The notes below the pieces were generated by a model. It ran no database searches, had not been told where the DNA came from, and worked only from the letters and a program-made list of their open reading frames with translations. From Minisyncoccia bacterium (GTDB taxonomy: Bacteria; Patescibacteriota; Minisyncoccia; UBA6257; 2-01-FULL-56-20): 64,000 bases of DNA. Positions 4,676-56,537 of the stretch are shown one piece after another. Numbering within the stretch: position 1 is the first letter of the stretch; each line of letters starts with the position of its first letter. Both the position numbers and the translations under genes were made by a program. The stretch is taken from NCBI GenBank assembly GCA_050008535.1, contig JBEKML010000001.1:66246-130245 (forward strand), read 5' to 3'.

Positions 4676-5212
4676 CTACGGCACAAATCGCCAACCCTCT
4701 TTTTTGTGATTAAGAATCACGTCTTTTCCGAAGCAGGGCTTGAGCAATCCGTGCAGTTCGCTCACGTATTTGGCGATGGTCGAGAATCTGGTTCTCTCAC
4801 GCCGTTCGGCCCGGATGATTTCCTCCCGTATTTCATCGCATAAGACCAGCTGGTTCGGCCGGGACATAAATATCCGGCATAGGTCGTTGAGCTGATCACG
4901 CATAGGGATCACTGATCCTCTGAAGCGGATCGTGCCGTCGGAATATGTCGCAAGGTCGCCGATTTCTATTTCAGGCTTTATTTTTTGAGTAGATAGACTG
5001 CATAGCACAGCCGTTGTTTTCTTTAATCTCAAATTACTAACCCGTCGATCACCATCTAGTTCGCTGACCTCCTGACGCAACATTTTTACCTCACAGATCA
5101 GCCGGTACAAAAGAACCCCGATTGGAATTTCGACAATCAAAAAGCGATAGGTTATTTCAATGCTTACTGCCGAATATTGCGCTGTCATTTTCATAGTCAT
5201 CTTTGCTAACAC
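4676..5212 (-). CDS. hypothetical protein (178 aa)
   Basis: Intact ORF in a lower-GC stretch. Confidence 0.4.
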   Translation of the reverse strand: MLAKMTMKMTAQYSAVSIEITYRFLIVEIPIGVLLYRLICEVKMLRQEVSELDGDRRVSNLRLKKTTAVLCSLSTQKIKPEIEIGDLATYSDGTIRFRGSVIPMRDQLNDLCRIFMSRPNQLVLCDEIREEIIRAERRERTRFSTIAKYVSELHGLLKPCFGKDVILNHKKEGWRFVP

Positions 5213-5377
5213 CTAAAACGAAACGAGCTCGTAACCCAACTATCAAATCGATAGTGGATTACGAGCTCGTGAGCAAGGAATGCCGTTCAGGTCGCCCCTT
5301 GAGGCGAAATTATTTAATTGTTGGATTTATTATAACACTTTTCAAAAATTCTCTTAAAAAATTCACTGTGTATAAAT

Positions 5378-6778
5378 TTACCGTCTTGGCTTTGAAAAAT
5401 TTCTGATTGCACCCTCCATAACACACTTCATGATCATTCCGTTGATGGGCTCGCTGTAACTCCGGCTACCTTCTGTAAGTTGCATATGGCCGATGTTCTC
5501 ATTCCAAACAAAATATTGTGTTTTCTCTCTGCCTTCTTTGTGCAAAGCAAGCCCGTCAGTAAAAGGGTCAACTTGCACAATTTTCCTAAGGTCGAGGTTG
5601 ATGGTTTTCATATTTCCCGAAAAGACAAAACGTTCATTGGTGATTGTAAGAATTCCTCGATCTATGTCCCGTATTTCTTGGTGGGACTCGCTTGTCGAAC
5701 CAAACCTACCCATTCTAAAATAGACACCTTTTGCGACGCGGAAGCTTGGACCGGCATATCCACCACTGCTTTTTCGAACAGCCCTGGGTTCTTTCAGCGT
5801 TACTCCGGGAAGAGCAAAAAGGAGTTCCTCGCCAGATTTCATAATAACGGGCGTATCGACTCCTTTGAAGCTAATCTTGATTGCACCGGCACTCAACTTT
5901 TCCAGCCACTGCTCTATATCAGCTTTTCTTTGTTTCTCGTCCGACATTCCGCCATTCCCGATATTGACCCATTCACGAGGAGATAGTGTTTGGCGAGAAT
6001 ACTCTTGCCAAACCTTATTGGATTGATCGTTAACTTTTACAAACTTATATCCGGTTTCGTTTTTCCTGAAAGTCGCACCGCATTTATCGCACATAATACC
6101 TTCACGAGAAAACAAGCCAAAGAATACCTTTTCTGTTTTTAATGACATTTCTCCAACGTGACATGCAACACATCTTTTTGCTTCTGATAAATCTTGGTCT
6201 TTAGATAAAGCTGGATTTATTTGTTTATTTTGAGCGATACTCGTTGGCTTGGCGGTAACTGTCACACCGGTCGGCTCAATGTCTGATTTTAATATATAGC
6301 TTAAATCGCTGTCAGAACGGATCACGCTTGCAAGCGCCTCTGCAAAATAAACCGGCGGTGTTGTGTATCCGTGAATCCAGAGTCCCTCGGGTTCATATTT
6401 TTCTTTTGCCAGCTTTAACTCCTCGAGCATTTCTTTATACTCCTGCTCTCCGAGTACGGCCTTCATTTTCTTGCCAAAAGAATTTCCCAAAACCTTGAAG
6501 TCAGCGTCTTTAACCTCTTTTGCTAATTCATCCGAGCATTCTTTCGTCCAGTACTTGGCGACTATTTTCGCTTCAGGCCAGTCAAAATAGTTTTCGGGCA
6601 TTCCCGAAAACGGATTTGGCATAGATATGTTTAAACTTACTTTTTCGTCACCATCCCCAAACTCGGTGGTTTCGTTAAAACCATCATCGAGAATTTGTGG
6701 GTGGAATTTTAGATTTTTTATGGATAAAGCCATACTCTTGTTACTGAATAGATGCCGTCCAATTACCATCGGCGTCAA
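5378..6778 (-). CDS. hypothetical Cys4 zinc-ribbon protein (466 aa)
   Basis: Long intact ORF with a CVACH...CDKC zinc-ribbon pair in the middle. It overlaps the upstream gene by 38 nt, which suggests co-transcription. Confidence 0.55.
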   Translation of the reverse strand: MTPMVIGRHLFSNKSMALSIKNLKFHPQILDDGFNETTEFGDGDEKVSLNISMPNPFSGMPENYFDWPEAKIVAKYWTKECSDELAKEVKDADFKVLGNSFGKKMKAVLGEQEYKEMLEELKLAKEKYEPEGLWIHGYTTPPVYFAEALASVIRSDSDLSYILKSDIEPTGVTVTAKPTSIAQNKQINPALSKDQDLSEAKRCVACHVGEMSLKTEKVFFGLFSREGIMCDKCGATFRKNETGYKFVKVNDQSNKVWQEYSRQTLSPREWVNIGNGGMSDEKQRKADIEQWLEKLSAGAIKISFKGVDTPVIMKSGEELLFALPGVTLKEPRAVRKSSGGYAGPSFRVAKGVYFRMGRFGSTSESHQEIRDIDRGILTITNERFVFSGNMKTINLDLRKIVQVDPFTDGLALHKEGREKTQYFVWNENIGHMQLTEGSRSYSEPINGMIMKCVMEGAIRNFSKPRR

Positions 6779-8135
6779 TATTCAGAAGATAGATTCCGCT
6801 GTCATCTATGCGTACAGCTTTTGAACCGTTGTACGATCCGATGACGTTAACGAGTCCCTCAACCGTATTGCCGTTCACATCAAGCAAGTGAACAATAAAA
6901 TTGCTACTGCCGTCATGCGTAAATGCAAATGTGTGAAGACCTTGGGGGAGGCTGAAGAACGAAGTTGCTTGAGGCCCCCTACCATTAAGGCTAGAAGGAG
7001 ACTGGGCGCTGGTCGGTCGGGGTTGGGTTATGGTTATCGTCCACGGACCGTCCGAATCAACGTCAAACAGATAACTGCCTGCGTTTGAAATGTGTTCGGC
7101 TTTCGAGCCGCTAAAGTTTCCTATTTCGTTAGCGAGGCCATCAACAGTGTTTCCGTTACTATCCAAGAGGTGCACAATAAAATTGCTTTGGCCGGTATTT
7201 TGCATCGTAAAAATCGATAATCCTTGATCCAAATTGAATCTCTGGCTTGCTTGCTGGCCGTTACCGGAAATTGTTATCGGTGCAGGTGCTGGCTTAATTA
7301 CTGACACTGAGTTACTGCATGATTGGTTAACTGATTGGCTACCCGACACAACGTTCACTTGAGCGTTTTTGGTGCCGGCGCTCGAGTAAGATTTTGTGAC
7401 AGATTGAGTATTGCCTGACAAGCTCTCCGATCCAGACCACGAGAAACTATAAGATCCTGTACCACCGGACACTTGTGCAGTCCAAACAGCTGTCTGTCCG
7501 GCAGTGAGAGACGTTTGCGAAACTGAGCAAGAAACCGACAGAGCCGGTGCTGAAGGTGTAGAAGGTTGTGTTGCTTGCTGAGACTGCGATTGATTTGCAC
7601 TCGTTGGTTTCGGTGTTGTTGCTTTTGGCGCAGGATTATTTTGCGTTACAGTGTCGCCTGTACCTTTTTCAATAACGCAAGCAGTCATGCTTGGAATCGT
7701 GATCTGGAAATGCGCTTGCGATTCGTATGTTTTCGAGCCGGTCAATTGGCCATAAGCCGTAACCACGTCATCATCGACAGCATCTGTATGTCCCTGATAT
7801 TCGACGTAAACGACGTCGCTCGAACTCCATCCATACGATTCTTTTGTCACGGCAAGGCGAGCAATGCCGTAGCCATTCGATTCCTGAATTTGCAGAACTT
7901 GGCCTGTGAATTTGGCTATCTTGCCATTAAATGACCCAGGGTCTTTATTGAGTTCCTTAAAATCAACTGCCATTGCCTGATTTTTAAGAGAGGCTATATC
8001 GCTACAAAGTGATGGCTGGTTATCAGATGCGAGCTGGGCAGGACTATTATTGCTTGAGTCACTGCTACTGATAATGACGATTAATATTATAAAAACAACG
8101 ATACCGCCCACGATCCATACTGTTTTATTTTTCAT
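6741..8135 (-). CDS. membrane-anchored exported protein with a DUF4352-like domain, a PKD-like Ser/Thr-rich segment and two internal ~55-aa repeats
   Basis: N-terminal TM anchor (IVGGIVVFIILIVII). The segment GGTGSYSFSWSGSESLSG is PKD-like. The tandem repeats begin FIVHLLDSNGNTVDGLANEIGNFSGSK and FIVHLLDVNGNTVEGLVNVIGSYNGSK. Confidence 0.6.
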   Translation of the reverse strand: MKNKTVWIVGGIVVFIILIVIISSSDSSNNSPAQLASDNQPSLCSDIASLKNQAMAVDFKELNKDPGSFNGKIAKFTGQVLQIQESNGYGIARLAVTKESYGWSSSDVVYVEYQGHTDAVDDDVVTAYGQLTGSKTYESQAHFQITIPSMTACVIEKGTGDTVTQNNPAPKATTPKPTSANQSQSQQATQPSTPSAPALSVSCSVSQTSLTAGQTAVWTAQVSGGTGSYSFSWSGSESLSGNTQSVTKSYSSAGTKNAQVNVVSGSQSVNQSCSNSVSVIKPAPAPITISGNGQQASQRFNLDQGLSIFTMQNTGQSNFIVHLLDSNGNTVDGLANEIGNFSGSKAEHISNAGSYLFDVDSDGPWTITITQPRPTSAQSPSSLNGRGPQATSFFSLPQGLHTFAFTHDGSSNFIVHLLDVNGNTVEGLVNVIGSYNGSKAVRIDDSGIYLLNIDADGNWTASIQ

Positions 8136-8138
8136 GGC

Positions 8139-8360
8139 CTACTTAATAAAATATTTGATATCTTTATTGTAAATTTTTGCAAAGGCTTGAAGCTCGACGA
8201 CATCGACCCTTTGCTGTCCCGACTCAACATTGGAAATGTGAGACTGCGGACGCTTTATTTTTTTCGCCACTTCCGCTTGCGTTAAACCTGCTTCCTCGCG
8301 AGCCTTTCGCAATTTCTCCACGAAATAGGCGTATTCCTTTGTTCTGATAGACCTAGTCAT
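8139..8360 (-). CDS. XRE-family (Cro/CI-type) HTH transcriptional regulator
   Basis: AGLTQAEVAKKIKRPQSHISNVESGQQRVDVVEL is a classic HTH_3 sequence. Its stop lies 3 nt upstream of the start of the downstream gene. Confidence 0.8.
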   Translation of the reverse strand: MTRSIRTKEYAYFVEKLRKAREEAGLTQAEVAKKIKRPQSHISNVESGQQRVDVVELQAFAKIYNKDIKYFIK

Positions 8361-9133: not shown

Positions 9134-11665
9134 ATGAAAATGACTATGATAAATGACAAAAAATTGAATAAAGAGATCCTGCTCGCACTGCTCTCAGCGA
9201 CGTCGTCCGAAGAGATTTCTAATTTTATAAAGACAAATAAATTTTTTAATGCTGAGAATTGTTCGTGGAAGCCATACGGCGGACAAGAGACAAATGCCAA
9301 AAACGTAGAGGGGCAGATGAGAAGCTCGAGCAATGCGCTCGTAGAAAAAATAACGAATTCCACCGATGCGCTTTTAATGCGGAAGTGCTACGAAGTCGAG
9401 GGGCTGAAGCCGGAGAGCGGTAACTCCAAACTGCCTAAGACCTTATCAGAGGCGATCGCGAAATACTTCGGGACCGAGGAGGAGATAAACAAGAAACGTA
9501 GCGAATGGGCGAAGAAAAATCTGGTTTTACTGGCCGAGGGTGACAGGAAGAAACCGACGATTACGATCATTGATCGTGGAGAGGGGCAGTTCCCCAATAG
9601 AATTCAGGCGACGATTGTCGGACTGAGCGAGAGCATAAAAGAAAAAATAAATTTCGTTTTCGGTAAATACCATCAAGGCGGATCGGCCGCGATCCGTTTT
9701 TGCGGTAGCAAGGCGAACTGCTATCAGCTGGTCTTGTCGAGGAGGGCTGAAAGCATTGCCCAGAGGGAGGGTGAAACTAATGACTGGGGCTGGACGCTGG
9801 TGAGGCGCAATTTCAAGAACAGGATCACTTACTATGAATTTTGCACGGACATTAACGGCAACACTTTCTGCTTTGATTATGACAAGCCGTTAAAAATTCA
9901 AAACCTAGACATTGATTTCATCGATGGATGCCTTATCCGGTTATACGATTATTTCTTGGAAAATCCATCAAACATAACGTTCGGCTTTAATTCGCTGGCG
10001 TTCGATATCGACCAAAAACTCCAACGGTCACCGTTGCCTCTTTATCTCCAAGATAATCGAGGGTGGAAGGGTGATACCAAATATACGATCGCAGGCTTTT
10101 TACGAAGGGTGGAGGACAACAAAAATGTCATCAACGACGATATCACCCTGCAAGCAGGACTGGGAGAAATCGGAACGAGGAGTATTCGGTGTATCCGCCT
10201 CAAGCATATAAGCGATGTGGACGGCGTTAAGTCTTATAAGCAACAGAGGGACAAAATATTCTACGTCGAGAATGGATTAGCTCTCGGTTTTGAAACGGAA
10301 TCTTTTCTGAGGACAGACTGTCAGCTTCCGGCCCTTGCGCCATATCTGATCTGTTATGTTGATATGTCCGACATTCCAGTGGAGCTGGCGAATATATTCC
10401 ATGCCGGCCGGGAGGAATTCGCTCGGACGGATGACTATCATCTTTTGAAGGAACGCTTGCGAAAGTTTTTTGAAAATGAGATTTTTGAAAAGTGGGATAA
10501 GGAGTATCAGGAAAAGAGCTTGGCCAGTGCGAATGAGGACAATAAAGAGCTTGATAAGCTGATTGAGCGAGCCATTGTCGATGATCCGGAATTGAAGGAC
10601 TTGCTCGGCATTGGTGAAGAGATAAAGATACCGAAAGGCAAAGAAGAGGATAAAGAGCCTTACGTCGGAGAGGAAAATCCGAAAAAGTTTGAATACGTTG
10701 GGGAACAGCCCAAAGAAGTCGATAAGGGTTCCTATGCTCTTGTTTCCTTCCGGACCGAGGCGGAAGATAAGCTTTTGACCAGAAAGAAGAATCGCTACTA
10801 TATCGAATGGTCTAAAGGCTCGAAGGTCTTTGACGTGGTAATACGAGGGATGAATAAGGGCGTCATATCGCTTCGGGTTGATTGCCGGGAAAATGCGACA
10901 GTCGGAGACGAGGACAAGATAACTTTTACCTTGCTGGACTCCGAGAAAAATAAAAAGTTCGAAGAGAATATAACTTTCAAAGTAACCGAGACACCGCCTT
11001 ATATTGGCTCATATTTCCCGACCTATTTTGAACCGCAAAAGGACGTTCTGAAAATTTCTCCCAAGGCGACTAAAAAATTCACCTTTGCCACCGATGTCGC
11101 AAACGACTATTTCACGAGAGAGAAAGACGCCGGAGTCATTGAGTTCGGGGAACGGGATGATCTGCAATTAAAAAAGTTCAGATTGAATGATGGAATGTTG
11201 GAGGTGAGCTTCCACGCCACGACCGAAAAGCTGGGTAAGAAACCCGATATTAAAATTGCCATTAATGGGAGTATAGATCACCGTTTCGAGTTTGTTATTC
11301 CTTTGGAAATCGTACCGCCAGAGGAAAGCTCTAAACTGAATGAGCCCAAAAGGAACCCTGTCTACGAGAGGGACTGGCCGACTTATGGCTGGAGCGAGCA
11401 CGATGTGGCAAGCGTGGACTCTTCAAGGACGCAGGGACTGATAGTAAACCTCAACGTTGATTCCAAGCCGTTGAAAGAACTGAATAAGATGGTCGGCATC
11501 GACAAGATCGAAAGTGCAAAAAATAAATATCTCGCTGATACTTACATCTACTCTCTTTATCTGTATTTTGAATTGAAAAACGACCCCGATAAGGATCGTA
11601 TGCTAAGCTCTGCAATGCGCGCGATCGGAAAAGCACTGCCCGGTATGATCCGGAAGATTGTTTAG
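9134..11665 (+). CDS. GHKL/Bergerat-fold ATPase (MORC-like), 843 aa, with a large uncharacterised C-terminal region
   Basis: N-box ALVEKITNSTDALLMRK. G1 box TITIIDRGEGQ. G2 box FGKYHQGGSAAIRF. The remaining ~650 aa have no recognisable motifs. The stop TAG at 11663-11665 overlaps the stop of the convergent methyltransferase gene. Confidence 0.6.
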   Translation: MKMTMINDKKLNKEILLALLSATSSEEISNFIKTNKFFNAENCSWKPYGGQETNAKNVEGQMRSSSNALVEKITNSTDALLMRKCYEVEGLKPESGNSKLPKTLSEAIAKYFGTEEEINKKRSEWAKKNLVLLAEGDRKKPTITIIDRGEGQFPNRIQATIVGLSESIKEKINFVFGKYHQGGSAAIRFCGSKANCYQLVLSRRAESIAQREGETNDWGWTLVRRNFKNRITYYEFCTDINGNTFCFDYDKPLKIQNLDIDFIDGCLIRLYDYFLENPSNITFGFNSLAFDIDQKLQRSPLPLYLQDNRGWKGDTKYTIAGFLRRVEDNKNVINDDITLQAGLGEIGTRSIRCIRLKHISDVDGVKSYKQQRDKIFYVENGLALGFETESFLRTDCQLPALAPYLICYVDMSDIPVELANIFHAGREEFARTDDYHLLKERLRKFFENEIFEKWDKEYQEKSLASANEDNKELDKLIERAIVDDPELKDLLGIGEEIKIPKGKEEDKEPYVGEENPKKFEYVGEQPKEVDKGSYALVSFRTEAEDKLLTRKKNRYYIEWSKGSKVFDVVIRGMNKGVISLRVDCRENATVGDEDKITFTLLDSEKNKKFEENITFKVTETPPYIGSYFPTYFEPQKDVLKISPKATKKFTFATDVANDYFTREKDAGVIEFGERDDLQLKKFRLNDGMLEVSFHATTEKLGKKPDIKIAINGSIDHRFEFVIPLEIVPPEESSKLNEPKRNPVYERDWPTYGWSEHDVASVDSSRTQGLIVNLNVDSKPLKELNKMVGIDKIESAKNKYLADTYIYSLYLYFELKNDPDKDRMLSSAMRAIGKALPGMIRKIV

Positions 11666-12978: not shown

Positions 12979-13399
12979 ATGTTGTCACTGGTATTATACC
13001 GCTTTATAAGATTTCTATCAAAAAAATTTTGCACTTTTTGATATTCCGGGCAGTCATATTTGCTTAAGTTAAGCAAATCGTTTTAGGCTTTCAATTTTGG
13101 TCAAACCGGCTGGTCATGCTCGCGAATGGTGTCAATGGTGTACTCTGGCCACAAAGCTCGCTACAGGGGCAAACACGTGGCAGAAATCGGGGCGTTTAAT
13201 CGTGAGCTGATTCGGTCTGGAATAATCTCGATTTTTCTGATAAAATTCCAGTTGTAAAAGGTGGGTTCCATGTCTTTAGGCCAAAACGGTTGAAAAGTCT
13301 GGAATTATGCCCGCCTCCGGGAGGACGAGCTGTAAAAGGTCTTTAATCTCTCGGATATTACGGAGAATTGAGTTCCAATTCAATTCCCTCAAGGGCACA

Positions 13400-13465
13400 G
13401 GCAAAGAAAAAGGGTTTCAGATCGAGTACTAAGAAGGGCTCTCTCTGAAACCCTTTTTCTTTGCC
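13400..13465. repeat. hairpin repeat copy A (core in reverse orientation at 13424-13441)
   Basis: The 22-bp perfect inverted arms ggcaaagaaaaagggtttcaga/tctgaaaccctttttctttgcc flank tc-GAGTACTAAGAAGGGCTC-tc. Confidence 0.8.
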
Positions 13466-13669
13466 TTTTGGCACTCACGGGGAATTGAACGAGGGGGGAG
13501 GGGGCAGTCTGACCCCTCCGTGTAGGAGGGTCGCGCGCTTCGCGCGACAGTGCGCGCACCCTAGGTGTCGCAAGCGCAGGCCGGTCTTACCCGGCCGAGC
13601 AGTGAGATCCCTCGCAAAGCCAATAAGCTTAATGAGCGGGAAATAGGCGTGATTTGTTATAATAAAAAA

Positions 13670-15413: not shown

Positions 15414-15485
15414 GCGGGTATCGTATAGCGGCTATTATGCGACCTTGCCAAGGTCGAGATACGGGTTCGACTCCCGTTACCCGCT
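15414..15485 (+). tRNA. tRNA-Gly (GCC)
   Basis: Acceptor stem gcgggta/tacccgc. Anticodon stem cgacc/ggtcg with loop ttGCCaa. T-arm acggg-TTCGACT-cccgt. Confidence 0.7.
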
Positions 15486-16075
15486 CAAAGATCAAACGAG
15501 CGTCCAATAGTTTTTCTCTTAAATGTTGCCCCTGGCTTTATTTTCAGAAACCCCAGATTTGCTTTTCTAGCACCTTTGTAATCGTTTCCGCCATCAGCAA
15601 TCACAATACAGTCTCCAAATTTCTTCTTTATTTTCCGAAACGGGATCCCCGTTCTTTTTGAAAACCGGCACTGATTTTTTGTTATCGAATTTTCTATATC
15701 AAAATACTTTCGTATGCCAAGTCTATCAAGTACATACTGGGTTTCTTTTTCTTGCCCACCAGTAGCATAAATAAATCGGCAGTTATTTTTATTCGCCTTA
15801 ATCCAATCAACAATGGGATATCGTTGTGGTTGTGGCAGTTTTTTCTCAAGCACGCTTTTCTCAAACGCCCGGTTATACCATCGCCAATATACCGCCTTGG
15901 TTAATTTCTGCCCGGTCGCTTTTGTAAAAATCATATAAGTATCCGAGATCCCAGACATCTTCAATCCTTCGAATCTTTTTTCATATCTCCTGTTTGTCAT
16001 GCGCAAAAGCACCGATTTTTCAATCGGCCACATGTTGGTGAGCGTTCCATCGATGTCGAATATAATTGATTTCAT
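15485..16075 (-). CDS. HAD-superfamily hydrolase
   Basis: Motif I FDIDGTLT at the N-terminus. The gene is AT-rich and abuts the 3' end of tRNA-Gly. Confidence 0.65.
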   Translation of the reverse strand: MKSIIFDIDGTLTNMWPIEKSVLLRMTNRRYEKRFEGLKMSGISDTYMIFTKATGQKLTKAVYWRWYNRAFEKSVLEKKLPQPQRYPIVDWIKANKNNCRFIYATGGQEKETQYVLDRLGIRKYFDIENSITKNQCRFSKRTGIPFRKIKKKFGDCIVIADGGNDYKGARKANLGFLKIKPGATFKRKTIGRSFDL

Positions 16076-18019: not shown

Positions 18020-18089
18020 GCCAGCAAGAAGACCCTGTTTGAAAAGAGCCCTTCTTAGTACTCTTTTCAAACAGGGTCTTCTTGCTGGC
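18020..18089. repeat. hairpin repeat copy B (core forward at 18046-18063)
   Basis: The 26-bp perfect arms gccagcaagaagaccctgtttgaaaa/ttttcaaacagggtcttcttgctggc directly flank GAGCCCTTCTTAGTACTC. Confidence 0.85.
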
Positions 18090-18207
18090 TCATTCGATTA
18101 GAGGTATACTGTAACTAATAGCAAAATGCCCTTATCGAGAGGGCATTTTGCTTGAAGAGGGAGTATTGGAACCCCCTTGTAACCAGAGTCATTCTATTAC
18201 GTTCTCT

Positions 18208-25316: not shown

Positions 25317-25386
25317 GGAGCAGGGAGAAGATGCTTTGAAATGAGCCCTTCTTAGTACTCATTTCAAAGCATCTTCTCCCTGCTCC
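25317..25386. repeat. hairpin repeat copy C (core forward at 25343-25360)
   Basis: The 26-bp perfect arms ggagcagggagaagatgctttgaaat/atttcaaagcatcttctccctgctcc directly flank GAGCCCTTCTTAGTACTC. Confidence 0.85.
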
Positions 25387-51675: not shown

Positions 51676-54105
51676 CTAAATGACGACAGTCCCCGCCAGG
51701 CGGTCGCCGCCCTTAAGGTTCATGATGTGGACGCCTTGCGCCGCGCGGCCGGTCGTACGCACTGTTTCGAGCTTCGTACGAATCATCTGGCCTTTTGCAG
51801 AAAGCGCGAAAAGCTCTTTCTCTTCGGTCACGACATGCGCCGAAAGCAGCATCCCCGTCTTCTGGGTTACCTCCGCCGTCTTGATCCCGGAGCCGCCGCG
51901 GCTTTGCGTCTTGTATTCTTTAAGCGCCGTCTGCTTCGCAAAACCGTTCTCCATGACGACGAGAAGCTTTGCTTCTCCTCCTTTGATTATATCAAAGCCC
52001 GCAACCTCGTCGTTCTGTTTTTTAAGCTTGATCGCGCGGACGCCTGCGGCCGTGCGGCCCATCGGACGCACCTGTTTTTCTTCAAAACGGATGGATTGCC
52101 CCTGCCGCGTGGCCAAGATCACCTGGTCTCCGCCGCCCGTGAGCTTCGCCCACTTCAAGTGGTCCCCTTTCTTTAGGGAAATTGCGATGATGCCCGTCCG
52201 GCGGATGGCGAGAAACTCCTCAAGCGGCGTCTTTTTGACCACGCCGTGCCTTGTCACCATCATAAGATATTTTTTCTTCTCGCCCTTCGCGGAATAGTTC
52301 ACGATCGCGCTCACGGTTTCGTCCGCCGGGAGTTCCAGGAAGTTCTGAATCGCCTTGCCCTTCGCGGTGCGCGTCGCCTGCGGGATCTCGTACACCTTTG
52401 TCTGGAACACGCGCCCGCGATTTGTGAAGAACAAAACATTGTCGTGCGTCCGCGCGCTGAAGAAATGCGAGAGGAAATCCTCTTCCGCCACTTCCGAACC
52501 GATCAATCCCTTCCCGCCGCGCTTTTGCACTTTGAAGGTGCTCGGCGGCAGGCGTTTGATGTAACCGCCGCCCGAGACCGTCACGATCGCATCCTCGTCC
52601 ACAATAAGATCTTCGTCGCTCACCGCGGCGATCCCGTGCGCCACCACCTGCGTCCGCCGTTCGTCACCGTATTTTTCCTTCAATGCATGGACTTCATCCT
52701 TGATGATCTTTAGGATCTTTGCAGGGCTCTTTAAAATGAGCGTGAGTTCTTCAATAAGCGCCTTTTTTTCTTTCAATTCCGCTTCTATCTTTTGGTGCTC
52801 AAGCGCCGCGAGCGTTTGCAGGCGCATTTCCAAAATCGCCGTCGCCTGCACGTCGCTCAATTTAAATTGTTTTACAAGGTTCACGTGCGCCTCTTCTTTG
52901 TCCTTCGATTTCTTGATCGTCGCGATCACGCGATCAATGGCGTTCAGAGCTTTCGCAAGCCCTTCCAGGATGTGTGCACGCTCCTCGGCTTTCTTAAGAT
53001 CGAACTGCGTGCGGCGTTTCACCACCTCTTTCCGATACGCCAAATACTCAACAAGGATATCCCGCAGGGAAAGGAGCCGCGGCTCAAGACCGTGCTCGCT
53101 CGCAACAAGCGCGGTCATGTTCATATTGAAATTCTTCTCAAGATCGGTGTGCTTGTAGAGCCAGTTCAGCACCTTTTGTGGCGATACGTCGTTCTTGAGC
53201 TCTATCACAATACGCATCCCTTCGCGGTCCGATTCGTCGCGCAGGTCGCGGATGCCCTCAATTTTCTTTTCCTGCGCTAATTCGGCGATCATCCGCACGA
53301 GCTCCGCCTTATTCACCTGGTACGGGATCTCGGTCACCACAATGTCGAACTGCTTGCCGGCCTTATTTTCCACGATCTCCGCCCTCGCGCGCGTGAGGAT
53401 CGCTCCGCGCCCCGAAACGTAGGCCTCTTTGATCGCTTTTGTGTCATAAATGATGCCGCCCTTCGGAAAATCCGGGCCCTTCACGAATTGCAAAAGGTCC
53501 TCGCTGGTCGCATCCGAATTATCCGAAAGATGCAGGATCGCGTCCGCGATCTCGCCCAGATTGTGGGTGGGGATGCTCGTCGCCATGCCGACCGCGATGC
53601 CCAAAGCGCCGTTCAAAAGAAGATTGGGCAGCTTTGCGGGAAATACCATCGGCTCTTCCCGCGTCGCGTCGTAATTCGGCATCCAATCAACCGTTTCTTT
53701 TTCAATATCAAAAAGCAGTTCCTCCGCGATCGCCGACATTTTCGCCTCCGTGTACCGCATCGCGGCCGGCGAATCCCCGTCCATGGAACCGAAGTTTCCC
53801 TGTCCGTGCACGAGCGGATAACGCAAAGAAAAATCCTGGGCCATGCGCACCAGCGTGTCATAGATCGCCGAGTCGCCGTGAGGGTGGTATTTCGCCATCG
53901 TCTCGCCCACGACGTTCGCCGACTTCCTGAACTTCGCGAGATGCGTAAGGCCCGCATCCCACATCGCCCACAGGACCCGCCGGTGCACCGGCTTCATCCC
54001 GTCGCGCACATCGGGCAGCGCGCGCGCGATGATAACCGACATCGCATAATCAAGGTAGGATTCGCTAAGCTCTTTGGTAATTTCCCTCTTTTCCAAATTG
54101 GGCAT
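51676..54105 (-). CDS. gyrA: DNA gyrase subunit A
   Basis: Active-site AAMRYTEAKM with catalytic Tyr. The QRDR region VGETMAKYHPHGDSAIYDTLVRMAQDF. C-terminal beta-pinwheel repeats. Confidence 0.93.
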   Translation of the reverse strand: MPNLEKREITKELSESYLDYAMSVIIARALPDVRDGMKPVHRRVLWAMWDAGLTHLAKFRKSANVVGETMAKYHPHGDSAIYDTLVRMAQDFSLRYPLVHGQGNFGSMDGDSPAAMRYTEAKMSAIAEELLFDIEKETVDWMPNYDATREEPMVFPAKLPNLLLNGALGIAVGMATSIPTHNLGEIADAILHLSDNSDATSEDLLQFVKGPDFPKGGIIYDTKAIKEAYVSGRGAILTRARAEIVENKAGKQFDIVVTEIPYQVNKAELVRMIAELAQEKKIEGIRDLRDESDREGMRIVIELKNDVSPQKVLNWLYKHTDLEKNFNMNMTALVASEHGLEPRLLSLRDILVEYLAYRKEVVKRRTQFDLKKAEERAHILEGLAKALNAIDRVIATIKKSKDKEEAHVNLVKQFKLSDVQATAILEMRLQTLAALEHQKIEAELKEKKALIEELTLILKSPAKILKIIKDEVHALKEKYGDERRTQVVAHGIAAVSDEDLIVDEDAIVTVSGGGYIKRLPPSTFKVQKRGGKGLIGSEVAEEDFLSHFFSARTHDNVLFFTNRGRVFQTKVYEIPQATRTAKGKAIQNFLELPADETVSAIVNYSAKGEKKKYLMMVTRHGVVKKTPLEEFLAIRRTGIIAISLKKGDHLKWAKLTGGGDQVILATRQGQSIRFEEKQVRPMGRTAAGVRAIKLKKQNDEVAGFDIIKGGEAKLLVVMENGFAKQTALKEYKTQSRGGSGIKTAEVTQKTGMLLSAHVVTEEKELFALSAKGQMIRTKLETVRTTGRAAQGVHIMNLKGGDRLAGTVVI

Positions 54106-55085: not shown

Positions 55086-56168
55086 ATGCCTCAAACAGAC
55101 ACGAATATCGCACAGGTTCTGAAGATCGAGCTTTCGTCCGCGGACTGGCCGAAGGAAGGGAGTGTTGTTGAAGTGACACTCATGAAAAAGGTGCCGCGGA
55201 AGGCCTACTTCGACATGGGCCGCTTCGGCACGGGCATCGTCTACGGCGCGGAAACAACGAACGCCAAGGAGATCCTCCGCAACCTGAATCCCGGCGACAA
55301 ATTACACGCGAAGATCATCGCTCTGGACGGCGAAGAGGGAAATATAGAGCTTTCATTGTCGGAGGCGGGCAAACAAAAACTCTGGCAGCAGGCAAAAGAG
55401 CTCGCGGAAACAGGAGAGGTCGTGAAAGCAAAGATTGTCGGCGCAAATGCAGGCGGACTTATGACTGCCGTTTCCGAAGAGCTCAAGGCGTTCCTCCCGG
55501 TTTCGCAACTTTCTCTTGAACACTATCCAAAAGTGCCCGACGGCGATCGCACGAAGATCGCCGAGGAACTTAAAAAATTCATCGGCGAAGAGCTCTCGGT
55601 GAAGATTATTGACGTAAATCCCCGCACCAACAAGATCATCGTCTCGGAGCGCGAAGTGCTCTCGGCGAACGTAAAAGAGCTGCTCGCCGCCTATGCCGTG
55701 GGGCAGGTGGTGGATTGCATCGTCTCGGGCGCAGCCGATTTCGGCATTTTCGTCCGGTTCACCGATAATCCGCAGATCGAAGGCATGATCCACATCTCGG
55801 AACTGGACTATAAACTGATCGATAATCCCAAAGAGCTCGTGAAGGTGAATGATCAGCTGAAAGCGAAGATCGTGGACATCAAAGAAGGCCGCGTTTTTCT
55901 CTCCTTGAAAGCGCTTAAGGAAGATCCATGGACAAAGCTCGGCGATAAATGGAAGCCCGGCGATGTCGTGCAGGGCCGCGTGTACAAGTTCAATCCGTTC
56001 GGCGCGGTGGTGGCGCTCGAGGATGATCTCCAGGGCGTGGTGCACATCTCCGAATTCGGTGGCGCCGACGAAATGAAGAAGGCGCTCGCCGTAGGCGAGA
56101 CCTATCCCTTTGTCATTGATGCCGTGAAAACAGAGGAGAAGAGGATCATGCTGAAGGTAAAGAAATAG
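55086..56168 (+). CDS. ribosomal protein S1-like protein with four S1 domains
   Basis: Repeated S1 OB-fold units, for example GDVVQGRVYKFNPFGAVVAL. Confidence 0.85.
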   Translation: MPQTDTNIAQVLKIELSSADWPKEGSVVEVTLMKKVPRKAYFDMGRFGTGIVYGAETTNAKEILRNLNPGDKLHAKIIALDGEEGNIELSLSEAGKQKLWQQAKELAETGEVVKAKIVGANAGGLMTAVSEELKAFLPVSQLSLEHYPKVPDGDRTKIAEELKKFIGEELSVKIIDVNPRTNKIIVSEREVLSANVKELLAAYAVGQVVDCIVSGAADFGIFVRFTDNPQIEGMIHISELDYKLIDNPKELVKVNDQLKAKIVDIKEGRVFLSLKALKEDPWTKLGDKWKPGDVVQGRVYKFNPFGAVVALEDDLQGVVHISEFGGADEMKKALAVGETYPFVIDAVKTEEKRIMLKVKK

Positions 56169-56238
56169 ACACGAAGCATATACCTTTTGAAACGAGTACT
56201 CAGAAGGGCTCGTTTCAAAAGGTATATGCTTCGTGTCT
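56167..56238. repeat. hairpin repeat copy D (core in reverse orientation at 56194-56211, G-variant)
   Basis: The 27-bp perfect arms agacacgaagcatataccttttgaaac/gtttcaaaaggtatatgcttcgtgtct flank GAGTACTCAGAAGGGCTC. The element starts within the stop codon of the S1 gene. Confidence 0.85.
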
Positions 56239-56300
56239 GCAACTTGTTTCCGATTGAGAAACGCGATAAGATAAAACCGCTTCTTTAACAAGGAGTGGAT

Positions 56301-56372
56301 GCCGCGGTAGCTCAGTGGCAGAGCGCAGCCCTGAAGAGGCTGGCGTCGGGTGTTCGATTCACCCCCGCGGCA
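56301..56372 (+). tRNA. tRNA-Phe (GAA)
   Basis: Acceptor stem gccgcgg/ccgcggc. Anticodon stem cagcc/ggctg with loop ctGAAga. T-arm gggtg-TTCGATT-caccc. Confidence 0.8.
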
Positions 56373-56384
56373 CACAACAAGCAA

Positions 56385-56452
56385 GGACAAAACAAAGATG
56401 GCTTGGGGAGAGCCCTTCTGAGTACTCTCTCCAAGCCATCTTTGTTTTGTCC
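56385..56452. repeat. hairpin repeat copy E (core forward at 56410-56427, G-variant)
   Basis: The 25-bp arms ggacaaaacaaagatggcttgggga/tctccaagccatctttgttttgtcc carry one G/A mismatch, which would be a G-U pair in RNA. They flank GAGCCCTTCTGAGTACTC. Confidence 0.8.
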
Positions 56453-56456
56453 CAAG

Positions 56457-56537
56457 TCGGGCCGCTGGGAATTGAACCCAGTCTGCCTGTACCCAAAACA
56501 GGTGTACTACCGGTATACGACGGCCCGTAATGCCTCT
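56457..56537 (-). tRNA. tRNA-Pro (TGG)
   Basis: On the minus strand. Acceptor stem cgggccg/cggcccg. Anticodon stem cctgt/acagg with loop ttTGGgt. T-arm ctggg-TTCAATT-cccag. Confidence 0.7.

Follow-up and report, generated by a model that had tools for sequence, protein, structure and literature searches.

Hairpins at the ends of bacterial genes have been described under several names, among them bidirectional intrinsic terminators, repetitive extragenic palindromic (REP) sequences and their paired form, the REPINs, transposable elements of the miniature inverted-repeat type (MITEs) such as Correia, RUP and ERIC, and the inverted pairs of DNA uptake sequences in Neisseria and Haemophilus. REPs are credited with effects as terminators and as stabilisers of mRNA (PMC3733652). 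Stem-loops also characterise the tandem interspersed guide RNA (TIGR) arrays, in which tandem units with box C/D-like motifs stand beside a Nop-domain Tas gene (PMC12045711). Here we describe two long hairpins, D and E, which bracket a tRNA-Phe gene between a gene for an S1-domain protein and a tRNA-Pro gene in a Minisyncoccia bacterium (contig JBEKML010000001.1). The whole stretch of 64,000 nt that was analysed is called the window; coordinates refer to it unless they are given with a locus number such as L023, which stands for a locus fetched from another genome or metagenome. We lean towards the view that D and E are independent members of a dispersed, lineage-restricted family of stem-loops which would act as transcript-end signals, in termination or in processing. 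They are probably not a device that moves the tRNA gene.

The locus begins with a gene for a protein of 360 aa with an S1 RNA-binding domain (55086-56168, + strand; taken from the open reading frame list, Pfam S1 E=7e-37). The last two bases of its stop codon TAG (56166-56168) are the first two of hairpin D (56167-56238). The arms of D, 30 nt each (56167-56196 and 56209-56238), are 100% complementary and enclose a 12-nt loop (56197-56208) that reads TACTCAGAAGGG on the + strand, so that the family orientation of the loop, CCCTTCTGAGTA, lies on the - strand. The predicted folding energy is -52.3 kcal/mol for the + strand and -50.0 kcal/mol for the - strand. A spacer of 62 nt leads to tRNA-Phe(GAA) (56301-56373, +; ARAGORN, Rfam tRNA 65.7 bits) and includes a weak candidate promoter, TTGTTT-17 nt-TAAGAT (56244-56272, +), which was picked out by reading the sequence and is sub-threshold in a consensus promoter scan; the related locus L023 holds TTGATG-17-TACCAT at the same spot between its hairpin and tRNA-Phe. 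After another 11 nt follows hairpin E (56385-56452, +), with arms of 28 nt (56385-56412 and 56425-56452) that contain one G.T pair and with the loop CCCTTCTGAGTA (56413-56424). Its distal 3' arm, ATCTTTGTTTTGT, is T-rich, as is the corresponding arm on the other strand, and it stops 3 nt short of the tRNA-Pro(TGG) 3' end (56456-56527, -; tRNA gene call and Rfam search); tRNA-Pro is convergent to tRNA-Phe. D and E are separated by 146 bp, and their 12-nt loops are the same but oppositely oriented. The region is identical in three assemblies of the source strain, which the S1 protein and its neighbours place among the Minisyncoccia (Paceibacterota) of peat metagenomes. The initial annotation had placed the start of D within the S1 stop codon and E between the two convergent tRNAs; these and all its other coordinates for the hairpins, the S1 gene and the tRNAs were borne out.

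Seven related loci, whose S1 proteins share 82-92% amino-acid identity with that of the window, were compared. The order in L023 (S1 85%) is the same, that is S1, a hairpin starting from within the stop codon, tRNA-Phe(+), a hairpin and tRNA-Pro(-). Both of its bracketing hairpins have a different loop of 18 nt, GACTTCGTCCTCGCAGGA and its inverse, and the outer stem AAAGATGGC/GCCATCTTT is common to E and its counterpart there. A canonical bidirectional terminator follows S1 in L022 (S1 92%), where tRNA-Phe comes next on the - strand (11117-11189). L049 (S1 82%, tRNA-Phe at 5150-5221) and L024 (S1 86%) are arranged likewise; tRNA-Phe of the latter (~11135-11410) is interrupted by ~230 nt and was therefore missed by ARAGORN. 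L047 (S1 85%) has a canonical terminator after S1 and lacks tRNA-Phe at this locus. In L048 (S1 85%) there is again a canonical terminator after S1, and another, AAAACAAAATCTCCAC-TGACCC-GTGGGGATTTTGTTTT, begins 2 nt downstream of tRNA-Phe(+). Finally, in L025 (S1 84%) tRNA-Phe(+) stands 26 nt after S1 with no hairpin, and a canonical terminator lies 3 nt from tRNA-Pro. The terminators at the D site of L022, L024, L047, L048 and L049 have a GC stem and a T run, and the outer stem of E, ACAAAACAAAGAT/ATCTTTGTTTTGT, resembles the A/T tracts of the L048 and L025 terminators. Therefore, the sites of D and E are terminator positions in the relatives, and on this comparison the hairpins are dispensable for tRNA-Phe. 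The bidirectional terminators of the relatives at both sites, together with the placement of the family at transcript 3' ends, fit the proposal of the initial annotation that the pair might serve as termination or processing structures. The check that it suggested, whether tRNA-Phe is relocated or lost together with its hairpins, gave no such case among the relatives: the gene lies on the - strand in L022, L024 and L049 and is absent from L047, in each case without the hairpins, and L025 keeps it in the same orientation directly after S1 without them, which argues against a mobilising role. As side observations, the insertion in tRNA-Phe of L024 lies in the anticodon loop and is possibly a group I intron, and L022, the closest relative, has a split, intein-bearing gyrase A gene (4677-8308; Pfam Intein_splicing); the gyrA gene of the window (51676-54105) is uninterrupted.

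The core CCCTTCTKAGTACTC occurs five times in the window, compared with 0.83 expected occurrences, and five were reached in none of 100 shuffles. As the initial annotation had stated, D and E carry its G variant and the other three copies, A, B and C, the T variant (13424-13438, 18049-18063 and 25346-25360). Copy A (13399-13466, -) has tandem A.G/G.A pairs at stem positions 4-5; copies B (18020-18089, +) and C (25317-25386, +) were delimited by core search and hairpin folding. All five are predicted to fold with -50 to -52 kcal/mol (z-scores -9.6 to -14.5, by copy and strand). What they have in common is the loop and the inner ~11 bp of the stem only, and the outer stems differ in each. C separates the 3' end of an NTP-transferase gene from the start of a DeoR-type helix-turn-helix gene, both on the - strand. 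B sits in a divergent intergenic region, where it occupies the place of tRNA-Gly(GCC) in the relatives, upstream of a conserved canonical terminator (18123-18153, at a distance of 33 nt) and of an extracytoplasmic function (ECF) sigma-factor gene. The sites compared for tRNA-Gly(GCC) were 18020-18160 in the window, 16140-16320 in L044 and 16540-16715 in L045; the window has its own tRNA-Gly(GCC) 2.6 kb off (15414-15486), behind a strong promoter-like site, TTGAAA-16-TATAAT. A link of orientation to replication was ruled out, as the window copies run -, +, +, -, + within 64 kb.

Arm identity between the window copies ranges from 53% to 79%, with every change compensated, and D and E are the lowest pair with 53%. 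The arms of D are closest to those of B, C, L035 and L042, a group which has TTTGAAACGAG in common, and those of E to the arms of L012 and A. Two further pairs are predicted within the loop (C3-G10 and U4-A9), which close a tetraloop UCUK, and the G/T difference is the last base of this tetraloop, a variable position; G and T variants also stand side by side in other genomes. The low arm identity and the variable tetraloop position speak against the earlier assumption that D and E form a distinct subfamily, and against their origin by local duplication.

For a wider view the query GAGCCCTTCTKAGTACTC was scanned against one genome per species and then against metagenomes. The species-representative genomes yielded 17 loci with 14 true long hairpins, all of them in metagenome-assembled genomes of Patescibacteria and 7 on one 588-kb contig; the metagenomes yielded 18 further loci with 15 true hairpins. 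The resulting catalogue holds 31 distinct copies, in contigs of Minisyncoccia/Paceibacterota, that is, of the candidate phyla radiation (CPR). One imperfect copy, L021, was below the stem-quality cut-off and was left out. Variant loops occur, for instance CCCTTCCGAGTA. Searched against Rfam 15 at the gathering threshold, the sequences gave tRNAs only, and at E<=10 the hairpins gave just sub-threshold generic matches to microRNA precursors. The core pattern had no match in the viral contigs scanned, and the literature searched contained no account of such elements in Patescibacteria.

From the catalogue a common architecture was derived. The conserved tip of 34 nt is TTTGRAARGAG-CCCTTCTKAGTA-CTCYTTYCAAA, where CCCTTCTKAGTA is the 12-nt loop, and the consensus order of the whole element is an A-rich tract, GGG, TTTGRAARGAG, CCCTTCTKAGTA, CTCYTTYCAAA, CCC and a T-rich tract. 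Stems are 26-34 bp long throughout the family. Their basal parts are copy-specific yet perfectly paired, usually with an A-rich 5' arm and a T-rich 3' arm. When 30 copies were aligned without gaps, 98.3% of the 750 pair cells proved to be paired, with G.U in just 3 of them; both sides have changed at 23 of 25 stem pairs, a level of covariation reached in none of 500 shuffles. All 18 non-Watson-Crick pairs are located at stem positions 4-9, and positions 10-26 are free of mismatches. Read on the CCCTTCT strand, these pairs are 13 purine-purine, 4 G.T and 1 C.A.

Even genomes with no more than ~80-85% identity between their S1 proteins have the same tip. Orthologous stems diverge faster than their flanks, with ~60% identity for the arms versus ~88% for the flanks in L036/L040 and 81% versus 90% in L012/L032, and both arms of orthologous hairpins always change together. 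This pattern suggests concerted evolution at the level of DNA, for example by template switching in quasi-palindromes, a mechanism taken from general knowledge; concerted evolution of the arms would also need selection on the conserved tip, or its spread. With an invariant loop, and with stems that evolve ~3 times faster than their flanks yet stay Watson-Crick paired with almost no G.U, the family offers a clean natural case of concerted evolution of palindrome arms. That the stems arose by inverted duplication of random flanking DNA was ruled out at the level of the whole family, since unrelated copies have homologous 5' arms (consensus ..GCAAAACAAAAAGGGTTTGRAARGAG). The palindrome may still extend outward, to judge from the stem of D, which takes in two bases of the stop codon, and from decayed inverted tRNA 3' ends beside several copies.

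Such remnants are frequent: on the side of the hairpin that faces away from the tRNA, the T loop, T stem and acceptor 3' strand of the tRNA often recur in inverted and decayed form, ~75-80% identical over ~22 nt (L015 ~296-335, L005 4718-4745, window 13467-13490). The palindrome would thus continue imperfectly into tRNA-derived sequence. A further arrangement was seen in L027 (14031-14194; the same as L031), where only an empty spacer of ~20 nt separates two copies of the family in opposite orientation, and the contig has a third copy elsewhere; among these three hairpins, two close with CAG/CTG instead of GAG/CTC.

The family is found predominantly at the ends of genes. Fourteen of the 31 copies lie at most 7 nt from the 3' end of a tRNA, some of them 0-3 nt from it, and none is within 15 nt of a tRNA 5' end. 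In 12 of these 14 the tRNA is on the strand opposite to the CCCTTCT loop. D and C come after the stop codons of protein genes, and 7 copies stand behind a conserved structured RNA that shares their strand. In 24 of 31 copies the distal 3' arm has 5 T or more within an 8-nt window, compared with 30% of background windows; this T tract lies within the paired distal arm and is absent in about a quarter of the copies. E scores 7/8 on both strands and D 5-6/8.

Other hairpins can take the same positions. A second family, with an 18-nt loop, GAMYTCGYCCTCGCRSGA, and likewise copy-specific perfect stems, occurs in L023, L024, L044 and L045, and L017 has a third, unique long hairpin. These family-2 and other hairpins are located at 9883-9956, 11080-11141 and 11302-11367 in L023, 9890-9949 in L024, 20076-20139 in L044, 19730-19797 in L045 and 2373-2435 in L017. 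Family 2 and the unique hairpin fill the same genomic slots as the first family, and families 1 and 2 occur together in OY970175. For instance, a family-1, a family-2 or the third unique hairpin, or a T-rich spacer alone, stands between the structured RNA and the tRNA convergent to it. In the window the family-2 loop GACTTCGTCCTCGCAGGA has a single match, with 3 mismatches. L045 (19727-19800) carries a GC-rich family-2 hairpin of 59 nt, 3 nt upstream of the 5' end of tRNA-Arg(GCG); at the same site L044 (20215-20232) has only a 16-nt palindrome, GTGAGTATGCACTCAC, and its hairpin stands at the 3' side instead. Judged by such comparisons, hairpins are gained and lost as units.

Copy A forms the 3' stem-loop of the structured RNA, which is ~150-160 nt long and lies at 13467-13623 on the - strand. 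RNAalifold gave five helices with compensatory changes at 13 pairs, and the G.U pairs place the RNA on the - strand. By a covariance model it was identified in ten of the fetched loci, which make nine distinct ones as L026 duplicates L017, with at least two copies on one contig; they include L006 1084-1245, L010 3260-3423, L012 3662-3822, L016 2727-2869, L032 5491-5648, L017 2443-2606, L044 19931-20074 and L047 7007-7138. Each begins with 14-19 nt that match exactly, in reverse complement, the adjacent convergent tRNA at its 3' end, from the T loop as far as discriminator +1 (the tRNAs are Glu, Gln, Arg-CCG, Arg-TCG, Arg-GCG and Pro), so that this segment recurs in the tRNA like an att direct repeat. 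Each closes with the same T loop and T stem in sense orientation, decayed, and this part pairs with the 5' segment. A family-1, a family-2, a unique or no hairpin then follows. The arrangement may reflect the integration, at the T loop of the tRNA, of a ~250-bp unit with att-like direct repeats, or a guide-like RNA against tRNA 3' ends. The structured RNA has no match in Rfam, and the literature searched on small non-autonomous integrative elements at tRNA genes held nothing that matches this unit; as a by-product it is more novel than the hairpin result. Matches of a 15-mer from this RNA in viral contigs (48) were due to chance, since the covariance model confirmed none. On its other side copy A is flanked by a decayed tRNA-like remnant (13330-13398, +), consisting of a 3' half with a T-arm-like GGGAATTGAA and an acceptor-like end; it was not called by ARAGORN, and relatives have an intact tRNA-Glu, Gln or Arg there.

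How might D and E work? With transcription of either strand, the stem would fold over its upper ~15 bp in the wake of RNA polymerase as the enzyme makes the T-rich distal arm, and the element would then act like a bidirectional intrinsic terminator. Copies with a poor T tract might instead be a barrier to 3' exonucleases or an RNase III site, which would define the transcript end. E would end the transcripts of both tRNA-Phe and the convergent tRNA-Pro; its design is convincing in both directions, with a 16-bp upper stem and then UUUGUUUUG on both strands, and that of D appears weaker. D would end or stabilise the S1 mRNA and insulate the tRNA-Phe promoter. The bracket around tRNA-Phe is then explained because the predominant hairpin family of this genome fills two adjacent transcript-end positions, and D and E would not constitute a functional pair.

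Several observations weigh against this explanation. Termination is deduced from position and anatomy, stems of 26-34 bp with a 12-nt loop are outside the usual range of intrinsic terminators, a consensus terminator scan called none at D or E, and the T tract of D is modest. Copies away from 3' ends exist as well: B and the hairpin at 9883-9956 in L023 each lie between divergent genes. Efficient termination at the L045 hairpin upstream of tRNA-Arg would abolish the tRNA, and this hairpin, from its lack of a T tract, could not be an efficient terminator. Furthermore, a plain terminator accounts neither for the invariant 12-nt loop nor for the clustering of all 18 non-Watson-Crick pairs at positions 4-9 with one polarity. 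The invariant loop and the clustered, polar mismatches suggest that the element has a further, sequence-specific role or that it spreads selfishly.

Selfish spread is possible, if rather unlikely on the whole. The hairpins would be REP-like or MITE-like palindromes whose tip is recognised by an enzyme, as a hairpin or as duplex DNA, and is spread by it; they would accumulate at gene and tRNA 3' ends or in terminator loops since insertions are tolerated there, and any terminator effect would be incidental. An identical tip on different stems in distant genomes is what such spread predicts. So is the gain and loss of whole hairpins between close relatives, seen in the 59-nt insertion of L045 that L044 lacks and in the sites of B and C, which are empty in both L044 and L045, as well as the presence of two or more tip families in OY970175 and the orthologous D/E sites of L023, which keep the outer stem with a tip from another family. 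The copies at non-terminator positions agree with it, and so do the non-Watson-Crick pairs, limited to the inner stem with fixed polarity; REP and IS200-type recognition hairpins likewise show imperfections in a defined part. However, no transposase or RAYT-like gene (REP-associated tyrosine transposase) was seen in the annotated neighbourhoods, no family copy shows a target-site duplication, and no two copies have stems in common, so that recent copy-and-paste is invisible. There is no GTAG or CGTC tag, the copy number is modest, with ~1 copy per 13 kb in the window, and the viral contigs are devoid of the core pattern. Very unlikely, in our opinion, is the alternative of small hairpin-RNA genes, or of RNA modules that bind protein, which would act via the loop CCCUUCUKAGUA, be carried on tRNA transcription units and be freed when RNase P or RNase Z cuts the tRNA next to them. 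Seventeen of the 18 non-Watson-Crick pairs would be purine-purine or G.U in a transcript of the CCCUUCU strand and otherwise pyrimidine-pyrimidine or A.C, the hairpin follows a structured RNA which its G.U pairs show to be transcribed on the same strand, and hairpins stand 0-3 nt from tRNA ends. B at the former tRNA-Gly site, with a conserved terminator 33 nt on, is placed like an independent small RNA gene, and the pyrimidine-rich loop reads weakly like an anti-Shine-Dalgarno sequence. But in 12 of the 14 tRNA-adjacent copies the tRNA transcript would carry the opposite loop, UACUMAGAAGGG, and D and C each lie antisense to the preceding gene. No promoter stood out as convincing, and the consensus promoter scan gave none for a minus-strand transcript of D. 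Also, 3 G.U in 750 pairs are unlike RNA families under selection at the RNA level, and there is no Rfam match.

That D and E are inverted recombination sites, or the ends of a composite element, which invert or mobilise the tRNA-Phe segment, as had been considered in the initial annotation, is extremely unlikely. Their 18-bp cores are exactly inverted, the tip of 11+12+11 nt is laid out like the core site of a recombinase, the orientation and presence of tRNA-Phe vary among relatives, and L023 retains the inverted pair. Yet the relatives with tRNA-Phe on the other strand (L022, L024 and L049) have a canonical terminator and other genes there in place of hairpins, and in L025 the gene is in place without them. 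Exchange from core to core would give non-complementary arms, and all 31 catalogued copies, from which the imperfect L021 was left out, are complementary. No recombinase, invertase or transposase is encoded nearby, the three assemblies of the strain are identical here, and an inverted orientation of two random family members has a chance of 50%. With no transposase, no target duplication, no chimeric arms and a stem similarity that stays at the level of the family, a composite or invertible cassette is unsupported. To the narrow question the answer is thus a deflationary one, as tRNA-Phe does not reside in a mobile cassette.

A more far-reaching idea, which we regard as unlikely, combines these elements: the 34-nt tip would be the recognition or mobile unit of a hairpin-specific CPR machinery that seeds terminator hairpins or converts them into long perfect palindromes, the arms would co-evolve by templated correction at the DNA level, and the system would be linked to the ~250-bp structured-RNA element targeting tRNA ends, whose 3' module the hairpin would form. 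On this view D and E would be no ordinary terminators but the outcome of a new kind of process that shapes genomes. If, as we favour, the hairpins are signals for transcript ends, some ultra-small CPR genomes have swapped ordinary terminators for a stereotyped, very long stem-loop with a conserved tip. This would imply a factor that reads the tip, and it would provide a sequence handle for annotating transcript ends in unculturable organisms.

Compared with the known systems, the TIGR-Tas stem-loop arrays can be ruled out, since the copies are single and kilobases apart and there is no Nop-domain gene in their neighbourhoods. Composite transposons and invertible segments do not agree with the locus either, as D and E have just 18 nt in common and no mobility gene is nearby. 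Like MITEs, the hairpins are short, non-coding, multi-copy, fold-back and intergenic; unlike them, they have only the central 34 nt in common, whereas MITE copies are alike over their full length and come with target duplications. The inverted pairs of uptake sequences in Neisseria and Haemophilus resemble the family as a conserved short sequence in terminator hairpins at gene ends with lineage dialects, but they form the stem and occur ~1 per kb, whereas here a single asymmetric loop occurs ~1 per 13 kb. CPR bacteria are thought to depend on DNA uptake. REPs and REPINs are likewise dispersed, lineage-specific extragenic palindromes at gene 3' ends with imperfections in a defined part of the hairpin. 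They conserve the stem and a GTAG/CGTC tag, whereas the family conserves the loop and inner stem and has no common tag, its copy number is lower, and its outer stem is unique to each copy; no RAYT (Y1 transposase) gene is among the annotated genes in ~45 kb of the window and the fetched loci. From intrinsic terminators, with stems of ~5-14 bp and loops of 3-8 nt, the family differs by its dimensions, by an invariant 34-nt tip common to dozens of copies, by a T tract that lies inside the paired stem and is missing from about a quarter of the copies, and by a few copies away from 3' ends. With bidirectional intrinsic terminators it shares the positions directly after genes and tRNAs and between convergent genes and, in copies with a T tract, the order of A tract, stem, loop, stem and T tract with complementary tracts, and at orthologous sites in relatives the two are interchanged. 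The family is therefore best read as a terminator-like or REP-like stem-loop of 3' ends, unusual in its conserved tip and its hypervariable, perfectly paired stems.

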